NCBI RefSeq assembly: GCF_046105845.1
Contig: NZ_CP151004.1
Direction: 5' to 3' (one strand)
DNA from: Escherichia coli
GTDB lineage: Bacteria; Pseudomonadota; Gammaproteobacteria; Enterobacterales; Enterobacteriaceae
Length of the DNA stretch: 64,000 nucleotides
The notes under the pieces are model-generated. The model was not told the DNA's origin. It did no database searches and saw only the letters and a program-made list of their open reading frames with translations. Below, one piece after another: positions 5,825 to 63,744 of this stretch (the first letter of the stretch is position 1; the number at the start of each line of letters is the position of its first letter). A program made the translations under genes and the position numbers.

Positions 5825-7027
5825 ATGCAAAGTGTTGATGTAGCCATTGTTGGCGGCGGCATGGTGGGGCTGGCGGTTGCCTGTGGCTTACAGGGGAGCG
5901 GCTTACGCGTTGCCGTACTGGAGCAGCGCGTACCGGAACCTCTGGCGGCGAATGCACCACCACAACTGCGCGTTTCGGCTATCAATGCCGCCAGCGAAAA
6001 ATTACTCACCCGTCTTGGCGTCTGGCAGGACATTCTCTCTCGTAGGGCCAGCTGTTATCACGGTATGGAAGTGTGGGACAAAGACAGCTTTGGTCACATT
6101 TCGTTTGACGATCAAAGCATGGGCTATAGCCATCTTGGGCATATCGTTGAAAATTCAGTGATTCACTACGCGCTGTGGAACAAAGCGCATCAGTCGTCAG
6201 ATATCACTCTGTTAGCCCCCGCAGAATTACAGCAGGTCGCCTGGGGAGAAAATGAAACCTTCCTGACGCTGAAAGACGGCAGTATGTTAACGGCGCGTCT
6301 GGTGATTGGCGCGGACGGCGCTAATTCCTGGTTGCGCAACAAAGCCGATATTCCGCTGACCTTCTGGGATTATCAGCATCACGCGCTGGTAGCGACCATT
6401 CGCACTGAAGAACCGCATGATGCGGTGGCGCGGCAGGTTTTCCATGGCGAAGGCATTCTGGCCTTTTTACCGCTTAGCGATCCGCATCTTTGCTCGATTG
6501 TCTGGTCACTGTCGCCAGAGGAAGCGCAGCGGATGCAGCAGGCAGGTGAAGACGAATTTAATCGCGCGTTAAATATCGCTTTTGATAATCGCCTGGGCTT
6601 ATGCAAGGTTGAGAGCGAGCGTCAGGTGTTCCCGCTGACGGGGCGTTATGCCCGCCAGTTTGCCGCACACCGTCTGGCGTTGGTGGGCGACGCCGCGCAT
6701 ACTATTCACCCGCTCGCGGGGCAGGGCGTTAATCTCGGCTTTATGGATGCCGCAGAGCTGATTGCCGAACTGAAACGGTTGCATCGTCAGGGTAAAGACA
6801 TCGGGCAGTACATTTACCTGCGTCGCTATGAGCGTAGCCGTAAGCACAGTGCGGCGCTGATGCTGGCTGGTATGCAGGGATTTCGCGATCTGTTTTCCGG
6901 TACCAATCCGGCGAAAAAACTGCTGCGTGATATTGGTCTGAAACTGGCCGACACGCTTCCTGGCGTTAAACCACAACTTATCCGCCAGGCAATGGGATTA
7001 AACGATTTGCCTGAATGGCTGCGTTAA
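5825..7027 (+). CDS. ubiI: 2-octaprenylphenol hydroxylase (FAD monooxygenase)
   Basis: 400-aa ORF MQSVDVAIVGGGMVGLAVACGLQ...; UbiI/VisC, paralogue of UbiH. Confidence 0.92.
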   Translation: MQSVDVAIVGGGMVGLAVACGLQGSGLRVAVLEQRVPEPLAANAPPQLRVSAINAASEKLLTRLGVWQDILSRRASCYHGMEVWDKDSFGHISFDDQSMGYSHLGHIVENSVIHYALWNKAHQSSDITLLAPAELQQVAWGENETFLTLKDGSMLTARLVIGADGANSWLRNKADIPLTFWDYQHHALVATIRTEEPHDAVARQVFHGEGILAFLPLSDPHLCSIVWSLSPEEAQRMQQAGEDEFNRALNIAFDNRLGLCKVESERQVFPLTGRYARQFAAHRLALVGDAAHTIHPLAGQGVNLGFMDAAELIAELKRLHRQGKDIGQYIYLRRYERSRKHSAALMLAGMQGFRDLFSGTNPAKKLLRDIGLKLADTLPGVKPQLIRQAMGLNDLPEWLR

Positions 7028-7070
7028 AAATTTCTCATCTGTTGTTTATTTGATACCCATCACACTTTCA

Positions 7071-7100
7071 TCTCCCGGTTTTTTCGCCGGGAGATTTTCC
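7071..7100 (+). terminator. Rho-independent terminator after ubiI
   Basis: Hairpin tctcccgg ... ccgggaga with flanking T-rich tract about 45 nt after the ubiI stop. Confidence 0.55.
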
Positions 7101-7474
7101 TCATTTGAAATAAACTAATTTCACCTCCGTTTTCGCATTATATTTTCTAATGTCATGATTTTTTGATTTAGTGTTTTTTGACAATTTTTTAGTTCTTAAT
7201 ATTGCATTAATCAAATTAACTTTCTCATCTGTTTATCTTTATATAGAGATTTGTTCATTTTTTGGTTTTTTATTCTGTTGTGATTTTGGCGTTTTTTAAC
7301 CATAAGCTAATGTGATGATCAATTTTACCTTATGGTTAACAGTCTGTTTCGGTGGTAAGTTCAGGCAAAAGAGAACGATTGCGTTGGGGACCGGGAGTGG
7401 CTCCGATGCTGGGTTTCGTGGTGATAATTTCGCCATGGAAAAGTTGTCAGCCCCGCTTATTCAATGAGGACAAG

Positions 7475-8569
7475 ATGGCACAACAGACTCCTTTGTACGA
7501 ACAACATACGCTTTGCGGCGCTCGCATGGTGGATTTCCACGGCTGGATGATGCCGCTGCATTACGGTTCGCAAATCGACGAACATCATGCGGTACGTACC
7601 GATGCCGGAATGTTTGATGTGTCACATATGACCATCGTCGATCTTCGCGGCAGCCGCACTCGGGAGTTTCTGCGTTATCTGCTGGCGAACGATGTGGCGA
7701 AACTCACCAAAAGCGGCAAAGCCCTTTACTCGGGGATGTTGAATGCCTCTGGCGGTGTGATAGATGACCTCATCGTCTACTACTTTACTGAAGATTTCTT
7801 CCGCCTCGTTGTTAACTCCGCCACCCGCGAAAAAGACCTCTCCTGGATTACCCAACACGCTGAACCTTTCGGCATCGAAATTACCGTTCGTGATGACCTT
7901 TCCATGATCGCCGTACAAGGGCCGAATGCGCAGGCAAAAGCTGCCACACTGTTTAATGACGCCCAGCGTCAGGCGGTGGAAGGGATGAAACCGTTCTTTG
8001 GCGTGCAGGCGGGCGATCTGTTTATTGCCACCACTGGTTATACCGGTGAAGCGGGCTATGAAATTGCGCTGCCCAATGAAAAAGCGGCCGATTTCTGGCG
8101 TGCGCTGGTGGAAGCGGGCGTTAAGCCATGCGGCCTGGGCGCGCGTGACACGCTGCGTCTGGAAGCGGGTATGAATCTTTATAGTCAGGAGATGGACGAA
8201 ACCATCTCTCCTTTAGCCGCCAATATGGGCTGGACTATCGCCTGGGAACCGGCAGATCGTGACTTCATCGGTCGTGAAGCCCTGGAAGTGCAGCGTGAGC
8301 ATGGCACAGAAAAACTGGTTGGTCTGGTGATGACCGAAAAAGGCGTGCTGCGTAATGAACTGCCGGTACGTTTTACCGATGCGCAGGGCAACCAGCATGA
8401 AGGCATTATCACCAGCGGGACTTTCTCCCCGACGCTGGGTTACAGCATTGCGCTGGCGCGCGTGCCGGAAGGTATTGGTGAAACAGCGATTGTGCAAATT
8501 CGCAACCGTGAAATGCCGGTTAAAGTGACGAAACCTGTTTTTGTGCGTAACGGTAAAGCCGTCGCGTGA
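7475..8569 (+). CDS. gcvT: Glycine cleavage system T protein (aminomethyltransferase)
   Basis: Internal ATG at 7475 gives [41 protein letters not shown]..., 364 aa; the track ORF at 7352 is 5'-extended. Confidence 0.94.
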
Positions 8570-57697: not shown

Positions 57698-57956
57698 GGG
57701 CAGTGATACGTATCAATATGAGTGGCGATAAAATCAATGTGATAAATTGGGATTATTACGCATCAGGATGGGAAATAGGGTAAATGAGTCAGGAAATTCG
57801 ATACATCTATAGTGAATATTTTGCTGATGATACTTCCCTTTGCCAAATGAAATTAACCTCTTTCTCTATTACCGCGTTTTTCCAGAAGCAAGAGATTGGG
57901 TATCCAGAGGCTGGCTGCTATGATATGGCGTCTTGTTTTTTAAGCGAGGAAAGATT

Positions 57957-58709
57957 TTGAGTGCGGGACGCCTGAATAAAAAATCTCTGGGTATCGTGAT
58001 GTTGTTATCGATTGGACTGCTTTTGGCGGGCTGTTCGGGTAGCAAATCATCCGATACAGGAACGTATTCCGGCTCCGTTTACACCGTGAAACGGGGGGAT
58101 ACGCTATATCGTATTTCGCGCACCACGGGAACCAGCGTAAAAGAACTTGCGAGACTGAACGGCATTTCACCCCCTTACACCATTGAAGTTGGTCAGAAAC
58201 TAAAACTGGGTGGGGCGAAAAGTAGCAGTACACGTAAATCAACCGCCAAATCAACGACCAAAACCGCATCGGTTACACCGTCATCAGCAGTACCGAAATC
58301 TTCCTGGCCGCCAGTAGGGCAACGTTGTTGGTTATGGCCAACGACAGGGAAAGTTATCATGCCGTATTCGACAGCTGATGGCGGCAATAAAGGGATTGAT
58401 ATCTCAGCTCCACGGGGTACACCTATTTACGCCGCGGGTGCAGGAAAGGTGGTGTATGTGGGCAACCAGCTGCGTGGCTACGGTAATCTCATCATGATTA
58501 AACACAGTGAAGATTACATTACGGCTTACGCCCATAATGACACGATGCTGGTAAATAATGGGCAAAGCGTGAAGGCTGGGCAAAAAATCGCCACTATGGG
58601 GAGCACTGATGCGGCATCTGTTCGCCTGCATTTCCAGATTCGTTACCGTGCAACGGCAATTGATCCGCTGCGTTACTTGCCGCCTCAGGGCAGCAAGCCA
58701 AAATGCTGA
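57957..58709 (+). CDS. ygeR: LysM-domain / M23 peptidase-family lipoprotein
   Basis: Signal peptide with lipobox LLAGC; LysM motif (YTVKRGDTLYRISRTTG); C-terminal M23-like domain. Start uncertain: TTG at 57957 chosen, the track uses TTG at 57933. Confidence 0.85.
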   Translation: MSAGRLNKKSLGIVMLLSIGLLLAGCSGSKSSDTGTYSGSVYTVKRGDTLYRISRTTGTSVKELARLNGISPPYTIEVGQKLKLGGAKSSSTRKSTAKSTTKTASVTPSSAVPKSSWPPVGQRCWLWPTTGKVIMPYSTADGGNKGIDISAPRGTPIYAAGAGKVVYVGNQLRGYGNLIMIKHSEDYITAYAHNDTMLVNNGQSVKAGQKIATMGSTDAASVRLHFQIRYRATAIDPLRYLPPQGSKPKC

Positions 58710-58742
58710 TGGCGAATTAATCAGCAGTCAGCAGCGCGGCAC

Positions 58743-58770
58743 TTGCTAAGGAGAGCGTAAGGTTTATAAT
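58743..58770 (+). promoter_or_regulatory. Sigma-70 promoter of glyU (-35 TTGCTA, 16-nt spacer, -10 TATAAT, GC-rich discriminator)
   Basis: cTTGCTAaggagagcgtaaggttTATAATgccttacgc located 18 nt upstream of the tRNA 5' end. Confidence 0.65.
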
Positions 58771-58787
58771 GCCTTACGCATCTCGAA

Positions 58788-58861
58788 GCGGGCGTAGTTC
58801 AATGGTAGAACGAGAGCTTCCCAAGCTCTATACGAGGGTTCGATTCCCTTCGCCCGCTCCA
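58788..58861 (+). tRNA. glyU: tRNA-Gly (anticodon CCC)
   Basis: 74 nt: acceptor stem gcgggcg/cgcccgc, anticodon loop cttCCCaag, T-arm ggttcgattcc, and 3' end ...tcca (CCA not encoded). Confidence 0.93.
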
Positions 58862-59081
58862 ATTTATCTTCACCGCATCAACCTGTCATTTTTGTTGTAT
58901 CTTATTTTCCATATTATCTTAATTCAATCGCTTCAGACTTTTCGCAATCGCCGAAATACTTCCCCATTTTTTTGTAAATAAAAGCGTTTACGCAATGCAA
59001 TCCATTTGTAACAACCCAGGTAAAATACCTTATTTTCAAGTTGTTAAATAAGTGGTTATCTACGCTTTTAACAAACGATTG

Positions 59082-60704
59082 ATGGAATCTTTTATGAAAG
59101 GGAAATCTACATTAACTCTTCTGCTCGCTGGTATATTTTCATGCGGCACATGCCAGGCGACAGGGGCAGAAGTGACGAGTGAATCTGTATTTAACATTCT
59201 TAATTCCACGGGGGCAGCAACTGATAAAAGTTATTTATCGTTAAATCCAGATAAGTATCCTAATTATCGTCTTCTGATTCACTCAGCCAAATTAAAAAAT
59301 GAAATAAAGAGCCACTATACCAAAGACGAAATTCAAGGATTGTTAACATTAACAGAAAATACACGAAAGTTAACGTTGACGGAGAAACCCTGGGGAACAT
59401 TTATTCTTGCTTCTACTTTCGAAGATGACAAAACAGCGGCAGAAACCCACTATGATGCTGTCTGGCTGAGGGATAGTTTATGGGGCTATATGGCATTAGT
59501 ATCAGAACAGGGAAATAGTGTAGCCGCAAAAAAGGTTCTGCTCACTCTGTGGGATTATATGTCTACGCCCGACCAGATTAAGCGGATGCAGGATGTCATT
59601 AGCAACCCAAAACGACTGGATGGAATTCCCGGGCAAATGAATGCTGTGCATATCCGATTTGACAGCAACTCCCCCGTGATGGCAGATGTGCAGGAAGAAG
59701 GCAAGCCGCAGCTGTGGAACCATAAACAAAATGATGCTTTAGGTCTTTATCTTGATCTCCTTATACAAGCAATCGACACTGGTACTATTAACGCTGAAGA
59801 CTGGGAAAAAGGTGACCGATTAAAATCGATTGCGCTGTTGGTTGCTTATCTGGATAAAGCCAATTTCTATGTTATGGAAGATTCCGGAGCGTGGGAAGAA
59901 GATGCCAGATTAAACACATCTTCCGTTGCACTGGTGACCTCTGGACTGGAACGTTTGTCGAACTTACTCTCGAAGAAAGACTCTGTTTTTATCTCTGATT
60001 TACTACGCGAAGCTAAAGCCAATGAACTGGATGAAACTCTTTCAACAACGAGGTTGAACCATCTCATAGATAAAGGGTATGAAAGAATAACGCTACAGCT
60101 TGATTTAGGGGGAGAATCCCCTGGTTATCTGGAAAAAGATAAACATTACAGAGAAGCTGATGCGGCCTTACTTAATGTTATTTATCCTGCAAATCTTTCA
60201 AAGATAAATACCAGAAGAAAAGAGCAAGTTCTAAAAATAGTTAAAAAACTAGCAGGTCCGTATGGTATAAAAAGATACGAGAAGGATAATTATCAGTCGG
60301 CAAATTTTTGGTTCAATGATATTAAAACTGATACTGATGAAAATTCACATGCGAAAAGAGAAAAGAGCTTCATTCCATCAACAGAAGCAGAATGGTTTTT
60401 TGACTCATGGTATGCAAAATCAGCAGCAATTGTTTATAAAGAATCAAGAAAAGAAGAATATTTGAATGACTCAGTGCAATTTATGAATAGATCATTGGCC
60501 CAAATAACAGGCGAGAATATGATTGGTGCAAATGGCAGGAGCGTACCTGAAATGGCACTTCCCGAAAGCTATAACTATATCCACAAGTCAGGAACTTTGC
60601 ATGAAGCGCCAAGCCCTATCATTCCGCTAAACTGGTCGAAAGCCTCAATGACTCTTATGTTGAAAGAAATGTCCAACCTTATCAATGATGAGGGAATTAA
60701 ATAG
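59082..60704 (+). CDS. Secreted glycoside-hydrolase-like protein, GH15 (glucoamylase-like) motifs
   Basis: Signal peptide MKGKSTLTLLLAGIFSCGTCQA; motifs AVWLRDSLWGY and EDSGAWEEDARLN resemble the GH15 substrate-binding Arg and catalytic acid regions. Start ambiguous (ATG at 59082 or 59094). Probably corresponds to the ygeQ locus, which is a pseudogene in K-12. Confidence 0.6.
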   Translation: MESFMKGKSTLTLLLAGIFSCGTCQATGAEVTSESVFNILNSTGAATDKSYLSLNPDKYPNYRLLIHSAKLKNEIKSHYTKDEIQGLLTLTENTRKLTLTEKPWGTFILASTFEDDKTAAETHYDAVWLRDSLWGYMALVSEQGNSVAAKKVLLTLWDYMSTPDQIKRMQDVISNPKRLDGIPGQMNAVHIRFDSNSPVMADVQEEGKPQLWNHKQNDALGLYLDLLIQAIDTGTINAEDWEKGDRLKSIALLVAYLDKANFYVMEDSGAWEEDARLNTSSVALVTSGLERLSNLLSKKDSVFISDLLREAKANELDETLSTTRLNHLIDKGYERITLQLDLGGESPGYLEKDKHYREADAALLNVIYPANLSKINTRRKEQVLKIVKKLAGPYGIKRYEKDNYQSANFWFNDIKTDTDENSHAKREKSFIPSTEAEWFFDSWYAKSAAIVYKESRKEEYLNDSVQFMNRSLAQITGENMIGANGRSVPEMALPESYNYIHKSGTLHEAPSPIIPLNWSKASMTLMLKEMSNLINDEGIK

Positions 60705-60769
60705 TTTTCATAATGAGGCGGTCCTGGATTAAAAGGACCGCTCAAAGAGAAATCGTAAGGGAGGTAAAA

Positions 60770-60949
60770 GTGATCAATAAATTACTGTTAGCTTACCTGA
60801 TAGGTCTGGTTGTGACATCGACCTTAATATTTATCTTCTCGGAAGAAAAAGTAACATATCGGTTGTTTGCTGCAGTAATTACAGGGTTGACCTGGCCGCT
60901 TAGCCTCATTCCATCCATCATAAGTCTCATGATTCGTAAATCCGACTAA
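60770..60949 (+). CDS. Small (59-aa) two-helix membrane protein
   Basis: Strong SD aagggagg 6 nt upstream of GTG 60770; two hydrophobic segments (LLLAYLIGLVVTSTLIFIF; LFAAVITGLTWPLSLIPSIISLMI). The track ORF from 60713 lacks an SD. Confidence 0.45.
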   Translation: MINKLLLAYLIGLVVTSTLIFIFSEEKVTYRLFAAVITGLTWPLSLIPSIISLMIRKSD

Positions 60950-61294
60950 CAAGAAAATTATATGAACGATTAAGAAAAATAGAATCGAAAAAGAGAATAA
61001 AATATATGCGGGGAGTAACAAAACACTCGCAGTACGTTAATGTGTAACTAACAAATATGATTTTTATTGAAAATAGTCACCAAACAAGTGTTATAAGAAA
61101 TACGGGGTATGTTTAAGTAAAACATATCAACAGTTGCAATTCTGTATATGGACAGGATGACTTACTACTGTAAGTGGCTGATAGCTATTCGCTCATAACA
61201 AAATCATTATTTTATAAATAGTAATCATCACTTTTTAATCATGTTTTTATAGCAAGTTTATGGAGAATGAGAATATGGAATAAGGAGATGAAAC

Positions 61295-62044
61295 ATGATT
61301 GAAGAAGGGCTGTTACTTCCAATGAATGTTTTGCTTCAAGGACAGAAGTTAACCCTACTGGACCCTGAAATGTGGTTCTTACGGGGAAATGAAAACAAGG
61401 ATGTAACCCTTGTTATTACGATTGGTAATAACCATCAAAAATTAATGGTAGTGGAAGATATATTACTGCTCATTGACCGAAGCCAAATTGAGGTAACTGC
61501 AGGGAAAGTAATTTATCATCCACTTCGCATTGATATCCTGAGTAAATTATTAGCTTTTATAGATGAATCAACGGGGAGTGTGGAAAGGGAACACCATGAA
61601 TTGTTTGCTGATGCCTTGCCCTTTGCATCAGAAGTTGTGCTATTCAGTAAAGTTGCAAGTGAAGCCTGGTTTTTAGCCACTTATCTGAGCAGCGATAATA
61701 TTAATGAAATTCTGTTTCAGCATCTAAGAAAAACAGAATGCTATAAACTGGTTCGCTATTTATTATCGCAATCGCTCATACAGACTTCACTCTATGATCT
61801 TGGTGAGCTTTACGGCGTATCGTATTCACATTTTCGCCGTTTATGTAGTTATGCATTGGGTGGTAAAGTTAAAACGGAATTATGTGGCTGGAGAGTTGCC
61901 AGAGCCGTGTTGGAAATCATTGAAGGAAACAGTGATATGACAACTATTGCGCATAAATATGGCTACTCATCCTCATCACACTTTTCAGCCGAAGTAAAAA
62001 GCCGGTTAGGAAAAACACCGAGAGAACTATGTAAAAAGTTATGA
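61295..62044 (+). CDS. eivF: AraC-family T3SS transcriptional activator (InvF-like)
   Basis: 249 aa; C-terminal AraC HTH (TIAHKYGYSSSSHFSAEVKSRLGKTPREL); SD aaggag upstream; stop overlaps the secretin start (ATGA). Confidence 0.7.
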   Translation: MIEEGLLLPMNVLLQGQKLTLLDPEMWFLRGNENKDVTLVITIGNNHQKLMVVEDILLLIDRSQIEVTAGKVIYHPLRIDILSKLLAFIDESTGSVEREHHELFADALPFASEVVLFSKVASEAWFLATYLSSDNINEILFQHLRKTECYKLVRYLLSQSLIQTSLYDLGELYGVSYSHFRRLCSYALGGKVKTELCGWRVARAVLEIIEGNSDMTTIAHKYGYSSSSHFSAEVKSRLGKTPRELCKKL

Positions 62045-63744
62045 AAATAAAATTACGTATTACTATTATATTAATTTCAGCCTTATGCATTTTTAATGGA
62101 TTATTGACTCCTGGTGCATATGCCGCAACAGCGAATGGATACGTAGCAAATAAAGAAAATCTACGTAGTTTTTTTGAAACGGTTTCATCATATGCGGGTA
62201 AGCCTACAATAGTAAGTAAGCTTGCCATGAAGAAACAGATCAGCGGAAATTTTGATTTAACCGAACCCTATGCCTTGATTGAACGCCTGTCGGCGCAGAT
62301 GGGACTTATTTGGTACGATGATGGCAAAGCTATTTATATCTATGACTCATCAGAGATGCGTAATGCGCTGATTAATCTGAGAAAGGTATCGACGAATGAG
62401 TTTAATAATTTTTTAAAAAAATCGGGTCTGTATAACTCTCGTTATGAAATTAAAGGGGGCGGCAATGGTACTTTCTATGTATCGGGGCCACCAGTTTATG
62501 TTGACCTGGTCGTTAATGCTGCAAAATTAATGGAGCAAAACAGTGATGGCATCGAGATCGGACGCAATAAAGTAGGGATTATTCACCTGGTCAACACATT
62601 CGTTAATGATCGGACTTATGAATTACGTGGCGAAAAGATAGTTATTCCTGGCATGGCAAAAGTACTATCGACGTTGTTAAATAATAACATTAAGCAAAGC
62701 ACTGGGGTTAACGTACTTTCTGAAATTTCAAGTCGTCAACAACTAAAAAACGTATCACGTATGCCTCCTTTTCCTGGTGCTGAAGAAGATGATGATCTAC
62801 AAGTAGAGAAAATAATATCGACAGCTGGAGCGCCAGAGACTGACGATATACAAATTATTGCATATCCTGATACCAACAGTTTACTTGTTAAAGGAACAGT
62901 ATCTCAGGTTGATTTTATCGAGAAGTTAGTAGCTACACTCGATATTCCAAAGCGACACATTGAATTATCTTTATGGATAATAGATATTGATAAGACTGAT
63001 TTAGAACAGTTAGGAGCTGACTGGTCGGGCACGATAAAAATTGGATCCAGCCTAAGTGCATCATTTAATAATTCAGGTTCAATTAGTACCCTGGATGGGA
63101 CACAGTTTATTGCAACAATACAGGCACTTGCGCAAAAAAGAAGAGCCGCCGTTGTTGCTCGTCCTGTCGTTTTAACACAGGAGAATATTCCTGCTATATT
63201 TGATAATAACCGTACTTTCTATACTAAATTAGTCGGCGAGCGTACTGCGGAGTTGGATGAAGTAACCTATGGTACGATGATTAGCGTGCTACCACGATTT
63301 GCTTCGCGAAATCAAATTGAATTACTCTTGAATATTGAAGATGGCAATGAAATCAATTCTGACAAGACCAATGTTGATGATCTGCCTCAGGTTGGTAGAA
63401 CGCTTATAAGTACTATTGCGCGCGTGCCTCAAGGGAAAAGTCTTTTGATTGGTGGATATACACGAGATACGAATACCTATGAAAGTCGCAAGATCCCAAT
63501 ATTAGGCAGTATTCCATTTATTGGTAAATTATTTGGATATGAAGGAACAAATGCGAATAACATCGTTCGTGTCTTTCTTATTGAGCCAAGAGAGATCGAT
63601 GAGCGCATGATGAATAATGCGAATGAGGCTTCGGTTGACGCCAGAGCAATAACACAGCAAATGGCAAAAAATAAAGAAATCAACGATGAATTACTGCAGA
63701 AATGGATAAAAACTTACCTGAATCGTGAAGTCGTCGGAGGATAG
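62041..63744 (+). CDS. eivG: Type III secretion outer-membrane secretin (SctC / InvG family)
   Basis: 567 aa; signal peptide; secretin C-domain motifs (VPILGSIPFIGKLFG). Confidence 0.8.
   Translation: MKIKLRITIILISALCIFNGLLTPGAYAATANGYVANKENLRSFFETVSSYAGKPTIVSKLAMKKQISGNFDLTEPYALIERLSAQMGLIWYDDGKAIYIYDSSEMRNALINLRKVSTNEFNNFLKKSGLYNSRYEIKGGGNGTFYVSGPPVYVDLVVNAAKLMEQNSDGIEIGRNKVGIIHLVNTFVNDRTYELRGEKIVIPGMAKVLSTLLNNNIKQSTGVNVLSEISSRQQLKNVSRMPPFPGAEEDDDLQVEKIISTAGAPETDDIQIIAYPDTNSLLVKGTVSQVDFIEKLVATLDIPKRHIELSLWIIDIDKTDLEQLGADWSGTIKIGSSLSASFNNSGSISTLDGTQFIATIQALAQKRRAAVVARPVVLTQENIPAIFDNNRTFYTKLVGERTAELDEVTYGTMISVLPRFASRNQIELLLNIEDGNEINSDKTNVDDLPQVGRTLISTIARVPQGKSLLIGGYTRDTNTYESRKIPILGSIPFIGKLFGYEGTNANNIVRVFLIEPREIDERMMNNANEASVDARAITQQMAKNKEINDELLQKWIKTYLNREVVGG

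Follow-up and report, generated by a model that had tools for sequence, protein, structure and literature searches.

What drives transcription of eivF in Escherichia coli, and how much of the long AT-rich gap in front of the gene takes part? In the 64,000-nucleotide stretch of DNA considered here (the window; RefSeq assembly GCF_046105845.1, contig NZ_CP151004.1, one strand), eivF (61295-62044, plus strand) is an open reading frame for an InvF-like AraC-family regulator (Pfam HTH_18 and HTH_AraC; RefSeq product name 'type III secretion system transcriptional regulator EivF') and heads the operon beginning eivFGEA in the island of the second type III secretion system of E. coli (ETT2). A 345-bp non-coding gap (60950-61294) separates it from a gene for a small toxin-like protein. 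A preliminary description, made from the sequence alone, took the whole of this gap for a regulatory region of the kind silenced by H-NS in horizontally acquired islands. Here we present evidence that the proximal ~75 bp (61220-61294) probably form an activator-dependent eivF promoter region, with a HilA-type box for the regulators YgeH or EilA, and that the distal ~270 bp consist of AT-rich island DNA that is free of constraint and evolves at a neutral rate.

A conserved direct-repeat box upstream of eivF

In E. albertii the gene order is the same (glycoside hydrolase family 15 (GH15) gene, toxin-like gene, eivF) and the gap measures 340 bp, with a GC content of 28.5%. Silent sites are near saturation between the two species, with 52-60% identity at the third codon positions of GH15, eivF and eivG. 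Across 61220-61294, 68 of 75 positions (91%) are identical (binomial P 3e-9 or lower), and the distal gap yields 10-18 matches per 30-bp bin, no better than silent sites. Since identity is confined to the proximal part, constraint is limited to about one fifth of the interval.

More distant EivF homologues are those of E. fergusonii (54% identity) and Yersinia enterocolitica (57%), where the gap 5' of the gene is 850 bp (43% GC) and 512 bp (38% GC), respectively, and the neighbouring genes are different or divergent. When the final 96 nt of the four lineages are aligned without gaps, the invariant columns are TCATCA, TT, AATCATGTT, the AAT of the first of two GAGAAT motifs, GGAG and ATGAT. The GGAG belongs to the Shine-Dalgarno sequence AAGGAG (61282-61287, plus strand), 7 nt 5' of the eivF ATG (61295). 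The sole conserved block outside this ribosome-binding site is a direct-repeat box, TCATCACTTTTTAATCATGTT (61225-61245, plus strand), made of two TCAT-type hexamers, CATCAC (61226-61231) and AATCAT (61237-61242), which are separated by the 5-nt spacer TTTTT and repeat in an 11-bp register in all four lineages. The box reads TCA-TCACTT-TTTAA-TCATGTT in E. coli, TCA-TCATTT-TTTAA-TCATGTT in E. albertii, TCA-TCATCT-TTAAA-TCATGTT in E. fergusonii and TCA-TCATTA-TTCAA-TCATGTT in Y. enterocolitica, and its end lies 50, 50, 50 and 49 nt from the start codon, respectively.

The Yersinia orthologue is ysaE of the Ysa system, where the box is TCATCATTATTCAATCATGTT, 49 nt upstream of the ATG; the size and composition of its gap and its upstream neighbour differ from those at eivF. 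Published Ysa regulation centres on YsrRS, RcsB and YsaE/SycB. The upstream region of an Obesumbacterium-like invF, which contains TCA repeats in a different register, was left out. A search of genome contigs with EivF returned only one mislabelled E. coli contig and one unrelated match; the former (JAIJJM010000090.1, deposited as a 'Collinsella sp.' metagenome-assembled genome) encodes an EivF with 100% protein identity to that of E. coli and is almost certainly a binning contaminant.

A second, degenerate repeat, GCTCAT-AACAA-AATCAT (61193-61209, plus strand), lies 35 bp 5' of the main box and is part of a direct repeat AATCAT(T/G)(A/T)TTTTATA. It is found in E. coli only, being conserved in none of E. 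albertii, E. fergusonii and Yersinia, and is probably non-functional or lineage-specific.

Variation of the gap within E. coli

The gap is carried by 1320 of 5426 complete E. coli genomes, always on the chromosome and at 94-100% identity. An alignment of seven strains contains no indels, and its substitutions are very unevenly spread: 60950-61190, where 13 and 10 columns vary per 150 bp, is the most polymorphic part of the neighbourhood, and 61190-61294 together with eivF is nearly invariant. Among 1312 carrier genomes, identity over the proximal 100 bp is 99% or more in 805 and below 95% in none, and a representative of the 95-99% band has changes at 61222 and 61251 only. The middle 165 bp (61030-61194) gave megablast matches in just 558 of ~1310 carriers. 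The box hexamers are unaltered in six of the seven strains; in the seventh, Survcare253, which has a truncated eivF, CATCAC is changed to CATCAA. This is the only substitution seen within a hexamer, and it falls at a position that is also C/T-variable between lineages.

The truncation is shared by strains Survcare253 and 08-00022, in which eivF is cut after ~41 codons (the equivalent of 61295-61417) and fused to the 3' part of eivA, with eivG and eivE deleted. More generally, divergence between E. coli strains amounts to 2-5% for GH15, the toxin-like gene and the distal gap, compared with less than 1% for the proximal gap and eivF (59450-60700 vs 61250-62300). The shift in diversity at ~61190 could be the edge of a recombined segment as well as the point where constraint changes.

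Recurrence of the box in ETT2

A pattern derived from the eivF orthologues, TCATCA-N8-TCATG, was searched for in an intact 34-kb ETT2 island (NZ_CP098880.1). It has two exact copies there, both in the sense orientation, one 5' of eivF and the other 5' of eprH, the homologue of Salmonella prgH; 0.02 copies are expected in the 28-kb island under a base-composition model (Poisson P = 2e-4), and ~1e-4 in the eprH gap alone. No further copy is present in the rest of the 64-kb window. The eprH box, TCATCATAATTTGGTCATG, is on the minus strand (18128-18110 of the fetched NZ_CP098880.1 island), separated by 61 nt from the start codon of eprH within the 258-bp divergent gap between eprH and etrA, and is exact in Yersinia, with one mismatch in E. 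albertii. Box-like matches upstream of the E. fergusonii prgH homologue were not used; the gene is split and its start uncertain.

A relaxed pattern gives four sense matches on the operon strand, all of them in gaps upstream of genes: two at eivF, one at eprH and one at etrB/ygeK. The last, TTTCAT-TATTA-TTTCAT (minus strand, 14169-14153 of the same fetched island), is 89 nt upstream of etrB/ygeK and conserved in E. albertii, E. fergusonii and Yersinia; a perfect TATAAT comes 23 nt after it in E. coli and, over the four lineages, after 23-24 nt. This arrangement suggests that etrB is directly under YgeH control.

HilA-family regulators and the counterpart in Salmonella

Every lineage that carries the box also encodes a HilA-family protein (Trans_reg_C and TPR) in its island. 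In enteroaggregative E. coli (EAEC) 042, quantitative reverse-transcription PCR (qRT-PCR) found expression of eivF, eprH and ygeK to be lowered by mutation of ygeH and raised by mutation of hns (PMC4210603). [quoted passage not shown] Activation of eivF by EilA and its repression by EtrB have also been reported (PMC11068852, PMC10877973).

For comparison, SPI-1 DNA was retrieved via InvG and PrgK. The orthologue of eivF, invF, occupies the same place (regulator, secretin, gatekeeper), and the invH-invF gap is similar in size (357 bp, 36% GC). Within this gap, TATTGT stands 24 nt after TTTCAT-AATGA-TTGCAT; upstream of prgH, TTTCAT-TCTAT-TTTCAT is followed after 24 nt by TAATCT, so that both have a TAnnnT hexamer at this distance. 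The two repeats, which we take to be HilA boxes from our own reading of the DNA, are each followed by CAGGA. The HilA box of PinvF-1 and PprgH was reportedly defined by Lostroh and Lee in 2001 as a pair of hexamers with a 5-nt spacer, at -54 to -37, and both repeats fit this definition. ETT2 shares with these promoters two TCAT hexamers with a 5-nt spacer, standing tens of nucleotides before the start codon and recurring at the prgH homologue, and the hexamers of the etrB box (TTTCAT-N5-TTTCAT) are identical to those at Salmonella prgH. The two systems differ in the distance from box to start codon (68 nt at invF, 52 nt at eivF) and in the upstream neighbour (divergent invH vs the co-oriented toxin-like gene), and regulators of the HilC/HilD type are not annotated in the intact ETT2 examined.

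The tandem repeat at eivF also resembles the boxes of OmpR/PhoB-family regulators (e.g. the pho box) in its 11-bp register (one helical turn) and in adjoining a promoter without a recognisable -35, and HilA and YgeH share with that family the winged-helix Trans_reg_C domain. Unlike OmpR/PhoB proteins, HilA-family proteins lack a receiver domain and have a large, TPR-containing C-terminal part, and the half-site sequence differs.

Proposed promoter mechanism

The proposed element is of an already known kind, an ordinary activator-dependent virulence-island promoter of the HilA-box type. YgeH, which is encoded in ETT2, and probably also EilA, would bind the box at 61226-61242 and recruit RNA polymerase to a weak core promoter, the box lying just 5' of, or overlapping, a weak -35 region. 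The preliminary description had picked out no obvious consensus promoter, and two sigma-70 scans agree: a consensus scan finds no plus-strand site inside the gap, and the best plus-strand score of a position-weight scan in the gap is below that of 97% of shuffles. The weak promoter chosen by the latter combines TTTATA at 61246 with GAGAAT at 61269-61274. With so poor a core promoter, transcription would depend on an activator.

The candidate -10 is a tandem GAGAAT GAGAAT (61263-61268 and 61269-61274, plus strand), placed by analogy with the spacing between box and -10 at etrB and in Salmonella. Its first copy is 20 nt from the box and its second 26 nt; AAT at 61266-61268 is invariant in the four lineages, with variable positions around it. 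The predicted transcription start is at ~61274-61282, which would give a leader of 13-21 nt containing AAGGAG. We infer both this start and the binding of YgeH to the box from sequence and by analogy.

Several points weigh against this interpretation. The candidate -10 motifs are poor, and their spacing is the weakest point: at 20 or 26 nt from the box they are 3-4 nt off the distance found at etrB (23-24 nt) and in Salmonella (24 nt). The implied leader is unusually short, and at eivF both the start site and the binding of a regulator are predictions. Next to the Salmonella consensus TTTCAT/TTkCAT (followed by CAGGA), the eivF and eprH boxes read CATCAy/rrTCAT (followed by G), with the TCAT core alone in common, and the HilA-box hexamers used for this comparison are those we read from Salmonella DNA ourselves. 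The motif itself was drawn up with the data already in view, and orthologous sites share descent, so that occurrences cannot be counted as independent trials. In O157, where YgeH is reported to be non-functional (PMC4210603), the box is just as intact. Finally, low diversity in the proximal gap runs on into eivF, and the signal within E. coli may therefore partly reflect linkage to a low-diversity haplotype; the comparison with E. albertii is free of this problem.

The distal gap and possible silencing by H-NS

The main alternative is that the whole 345-bp interval is H-NS-silenced, with H-NS nucleating and spreading along it and several regulators competing over its length. We regard this as possible, if rather less than probable, and it can coexist with a box-dependent promoter. 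Composition is its first support. The interval is AT-rich and non-coding as first described, with 29.0% GC and many stops in each of its six frames; this compares with 50.4% GC for the whole window, 50% for the chromosome and 38% for the island part, and makes the gap the GC minimum of the 64 kb at the 345-bp scale (minimum at 60950; 0.03% of segments are as low). However, GC is 25-31% in all nine intergenic regions of 100 bp or more in the intact ETT2 island, and GC at third codon positions in the genes adjoining the gap is 32-37%. AT-richness is thus ordinary within ETT2 and no distinguishing mark of the eivF gap, and selection is not needed to explain it. Length and composition are kept in E. 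albertii despite scrambled sequence, but the gaps of E. fergusonii and Yersinia, next to other neighbours, have kept neither.

Sequence features specific to H-NS give a similar picture. A-tracts are mildly enriched in the gap (12, compared with 7.9 +/- 2.3 in shuffles), but their phasing is not significant, nor is the helical periodicity of AA/TT, which 19% of shuffles match. The high-affinity consensus (TCGATAAATT-like) has one match with two mismatches in the gap, and its counts across the window are at chance level. [quoted passage not shown]

The rise of eivF expression in the EAEC 042 hns mutant would fit direct silencing, but H-NS binding was demonstrated for the ygeH promoter only, and the authors ascribed the response of ETT2 genes to an action of H-NS on ygeH (PMC4210603), so that derepression of eivF may be indirect. 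The analogous invF-invH interval of SPI-1 is H-NS-bound in chromatin immunoprecipitation (ChIP) sequencing (PMC9335307), and this, together with the composition of the gap, makes its occupancy by H-NS plausible. A literature search for H-NS ChIP on ETT2 gave no match. The distal ~270 bp may be bound like other ETT2 DNA and would in this way contribute to silencing, which would not set the eivF gap apart from the remainder of ETT2.

Against a regulatory role over the full length, ~270 of the 345 bp are free of sequence constraint. The distal part (60950-61224, 29% GC) evolves fast, has no conserved element, and is a target of IS1 insertion and deletion. Independent IS1 insertions in the gap accompany loss of ETT2 genes in two strains: in IAI39 the junction is at ~61040 and the eiv through epr genes are lost, and in MS 115-1 it is at ~61238, inside the box, with loss up to yqeF. 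AT-rich gaps appear to act as deletion end-points of ETT2. The earlier suggestion of a regulatory region is upheld in so far as a region dedicated to eivF is concerned, given the cross-genus box ~50 nt 5' of the start codon and the published qRT-PCR (PMC4210603); it does not extend to the whole 345 bp, of which only the last ~75 bp are constrained.

Read-through and RNA-level explanations

It is very unlikely that the gap is promoterless and that eivF is transcribed by read-through from the GH15 and toxin-like genes, the proximal block being translation-initiation context. This would account for the lack of a strong sigma-70 match in the scans of the gap and for the lack of an intrinsic terminator between the toxin-like gene and eivF (no terminator-like site was found in the gap), and a review describes eivF as co-transcribed with neighbouring genes, without specifying which (PMC10877973). 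Conservation, however, reaches 70 nt 5' of the ATG, far past the ribosome-binding site, and is concentrated in the direct repeat; the same repeat occurs at eprH and etrB, with other upstream neighbours and orientations, and box and spacing are kept in E. fergusonii and Yersinia despite the change of neighbours. The fall of eivF in the ygeH mutant and its rise in the hns mutant (PMC4210603), together with the conserved box, argue against transcription of eivF by read-through alone.

Control of eivF translation at the RNA level, by a structured 5' untranslated region such as an RNA thermometer (as at Yersinia lcrF) or by a 13-nt pairing over the AUG, is very unlikely. An inverted repeat, TTTAATCATGTTT / AAACATGATTGAA (61234-61246 and 61291-61303, plus strand), is complementary at 12 of 13 positions, covers the start codon and forms in a 391-nt fold, and E. 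coli, E. albertii and E. fergusonii share the complementarity AATCATG / CATGATT. On the other hand, folding of the putative leader and the 391-nt fold are unexceptional (z = -1.55 and -1.44), and the short fold picks another structure. In Yersinia the pairing is degraded (GATGATC), and upstream of eprH no equivalent of the inverted repeat was found, though the box is conserved at both. The conserved distal hexamer TCATCA has no pairing partner, and the invariance of the inverted-repeat region makes a covariation test impossible. An Rfam scan of 58500-62500 at E <= 1 returned only tRNA-Gly and chance matches, none of them in the gap. A functional role for the structure formed by the inverted repeat is not supported. 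Apparent hairpins at 61105-61176, in the polymorphic middle of the gap, were rejected as well: one substitution there is a wobble change and one breaks the stem, and E. albertii has no such hairpin.

A mini-ORF of seven codons (MENENME; ATG at 61260, TAA at 61283) without a Shine-Dalgarno sequence was treated as a chance occurrence and is not maintained in E. fergusonii and Yersinia. Its sequence, ATG GAG AAT GAG AAT ATG GAA TAA, is invariant in E. coli and E. albertii and ends inside the eivF Shine-Dalgarno region.

The activator-dependent promoter and the inverted repeat might be joined in a two-layer switch, in which read-through RNA from the toxin-like gene is translationally silent through the 61234-61246/61291-61303 pairing and only the short-leader mRNA started by YgeH or EilA is translated. 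We hold this to be highly improbable. If it were true, a single 20-base sequence would double as a site for the activator in DNA and an anti-start-codon element in RNA, and the distal 270 bp would owe their retention only to length and AT content, as an H-NS platform.

An antisense or small RNA acting on the toxin-like mRNA in the manner of a type I antitoxin, started from the minus-strand site TTAAAA-18-TAAAAT (61238-61209), is scarcely credible: the site is the best consensus match in the gap and a small membrane-toxin gene lies directly upstream of the gap, but sites of such quality are at chance level in AT-rich DNA (2 found, 3.7 expected), more than 250 nt of unconserved sequence would have to be crossed before the toxin gene is reached, the minus-strand fold (z = -0.43) is not distinctive, Rfam has no match, and OrtT is described as an orphan toxin, the antitoxin of GhoT being a protein.

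Neighbouring features

The island edge is marked by tRNA-Gly (58788-58858), downstream of actS/ygeR (57933-58709); immediately past the tRNA, GC falls from ~50% to ~38%. The GH15 gene (59052-60704) follows, and then the 59-aa GhoT/OrtT-family toxin-like gene (60770-60949, plus strand; ECs3735/ydcX-like), identified from the RefSeq annotation of identical loci and from Pfam (PF10753, Toxin_GhoT_OrtT, E=1.3e-11) and named ECs3735/ydcX in the literature (PMC3977695). Its stop codon at 60949 forms the left edge of the gap. The gene is syntenic in E. albertii and absent at the E. fergusonii and Yersinia loci, and no antitoxin candidate is evident. Between the GH15 stop and the GGAGG of the toxin-like gene there is a perfect 8-bp GC-rich hairpin, GCGGTCCT-N8-AGGACCGC (60718-60741), without a T-run, which could be an mRNA-stabilising or terminator-like element. 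On the other side of the gap, eivF is followed by the secretin gene eivG/sctC (62041-63744). Outside the island end, the window has only one other stretch with GC of 32% or less at the 345-bp scale (6961-7385), between open reading frames at 5825-7027 and 7352-8569.

Implications for ETT2 regulation

About one in four complete E. coli genomes carries ETT2 (the 1320 of 5426 counted above), and in enterohaemorrhagic E. coli its regulators EivF and EtrA/EtrB engage in cross-talk with LEE. To our knowledge, the switching-on of ETT2 operons is known at the qRT-PCR level only. Most of the AT-rich gap before eivF holds no sequence information, which is relevant when such gaps are read as regulatory hubs. 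The box common to eivF, eprH and etrB offers a concrete, mutable target for the YgeH/EilA regulon, and a simple sequence test for retained control regions in degenerate ETT2 islands. A box shared with SPI-1 would also explain how YgeH can replace HilA in Salmonella.

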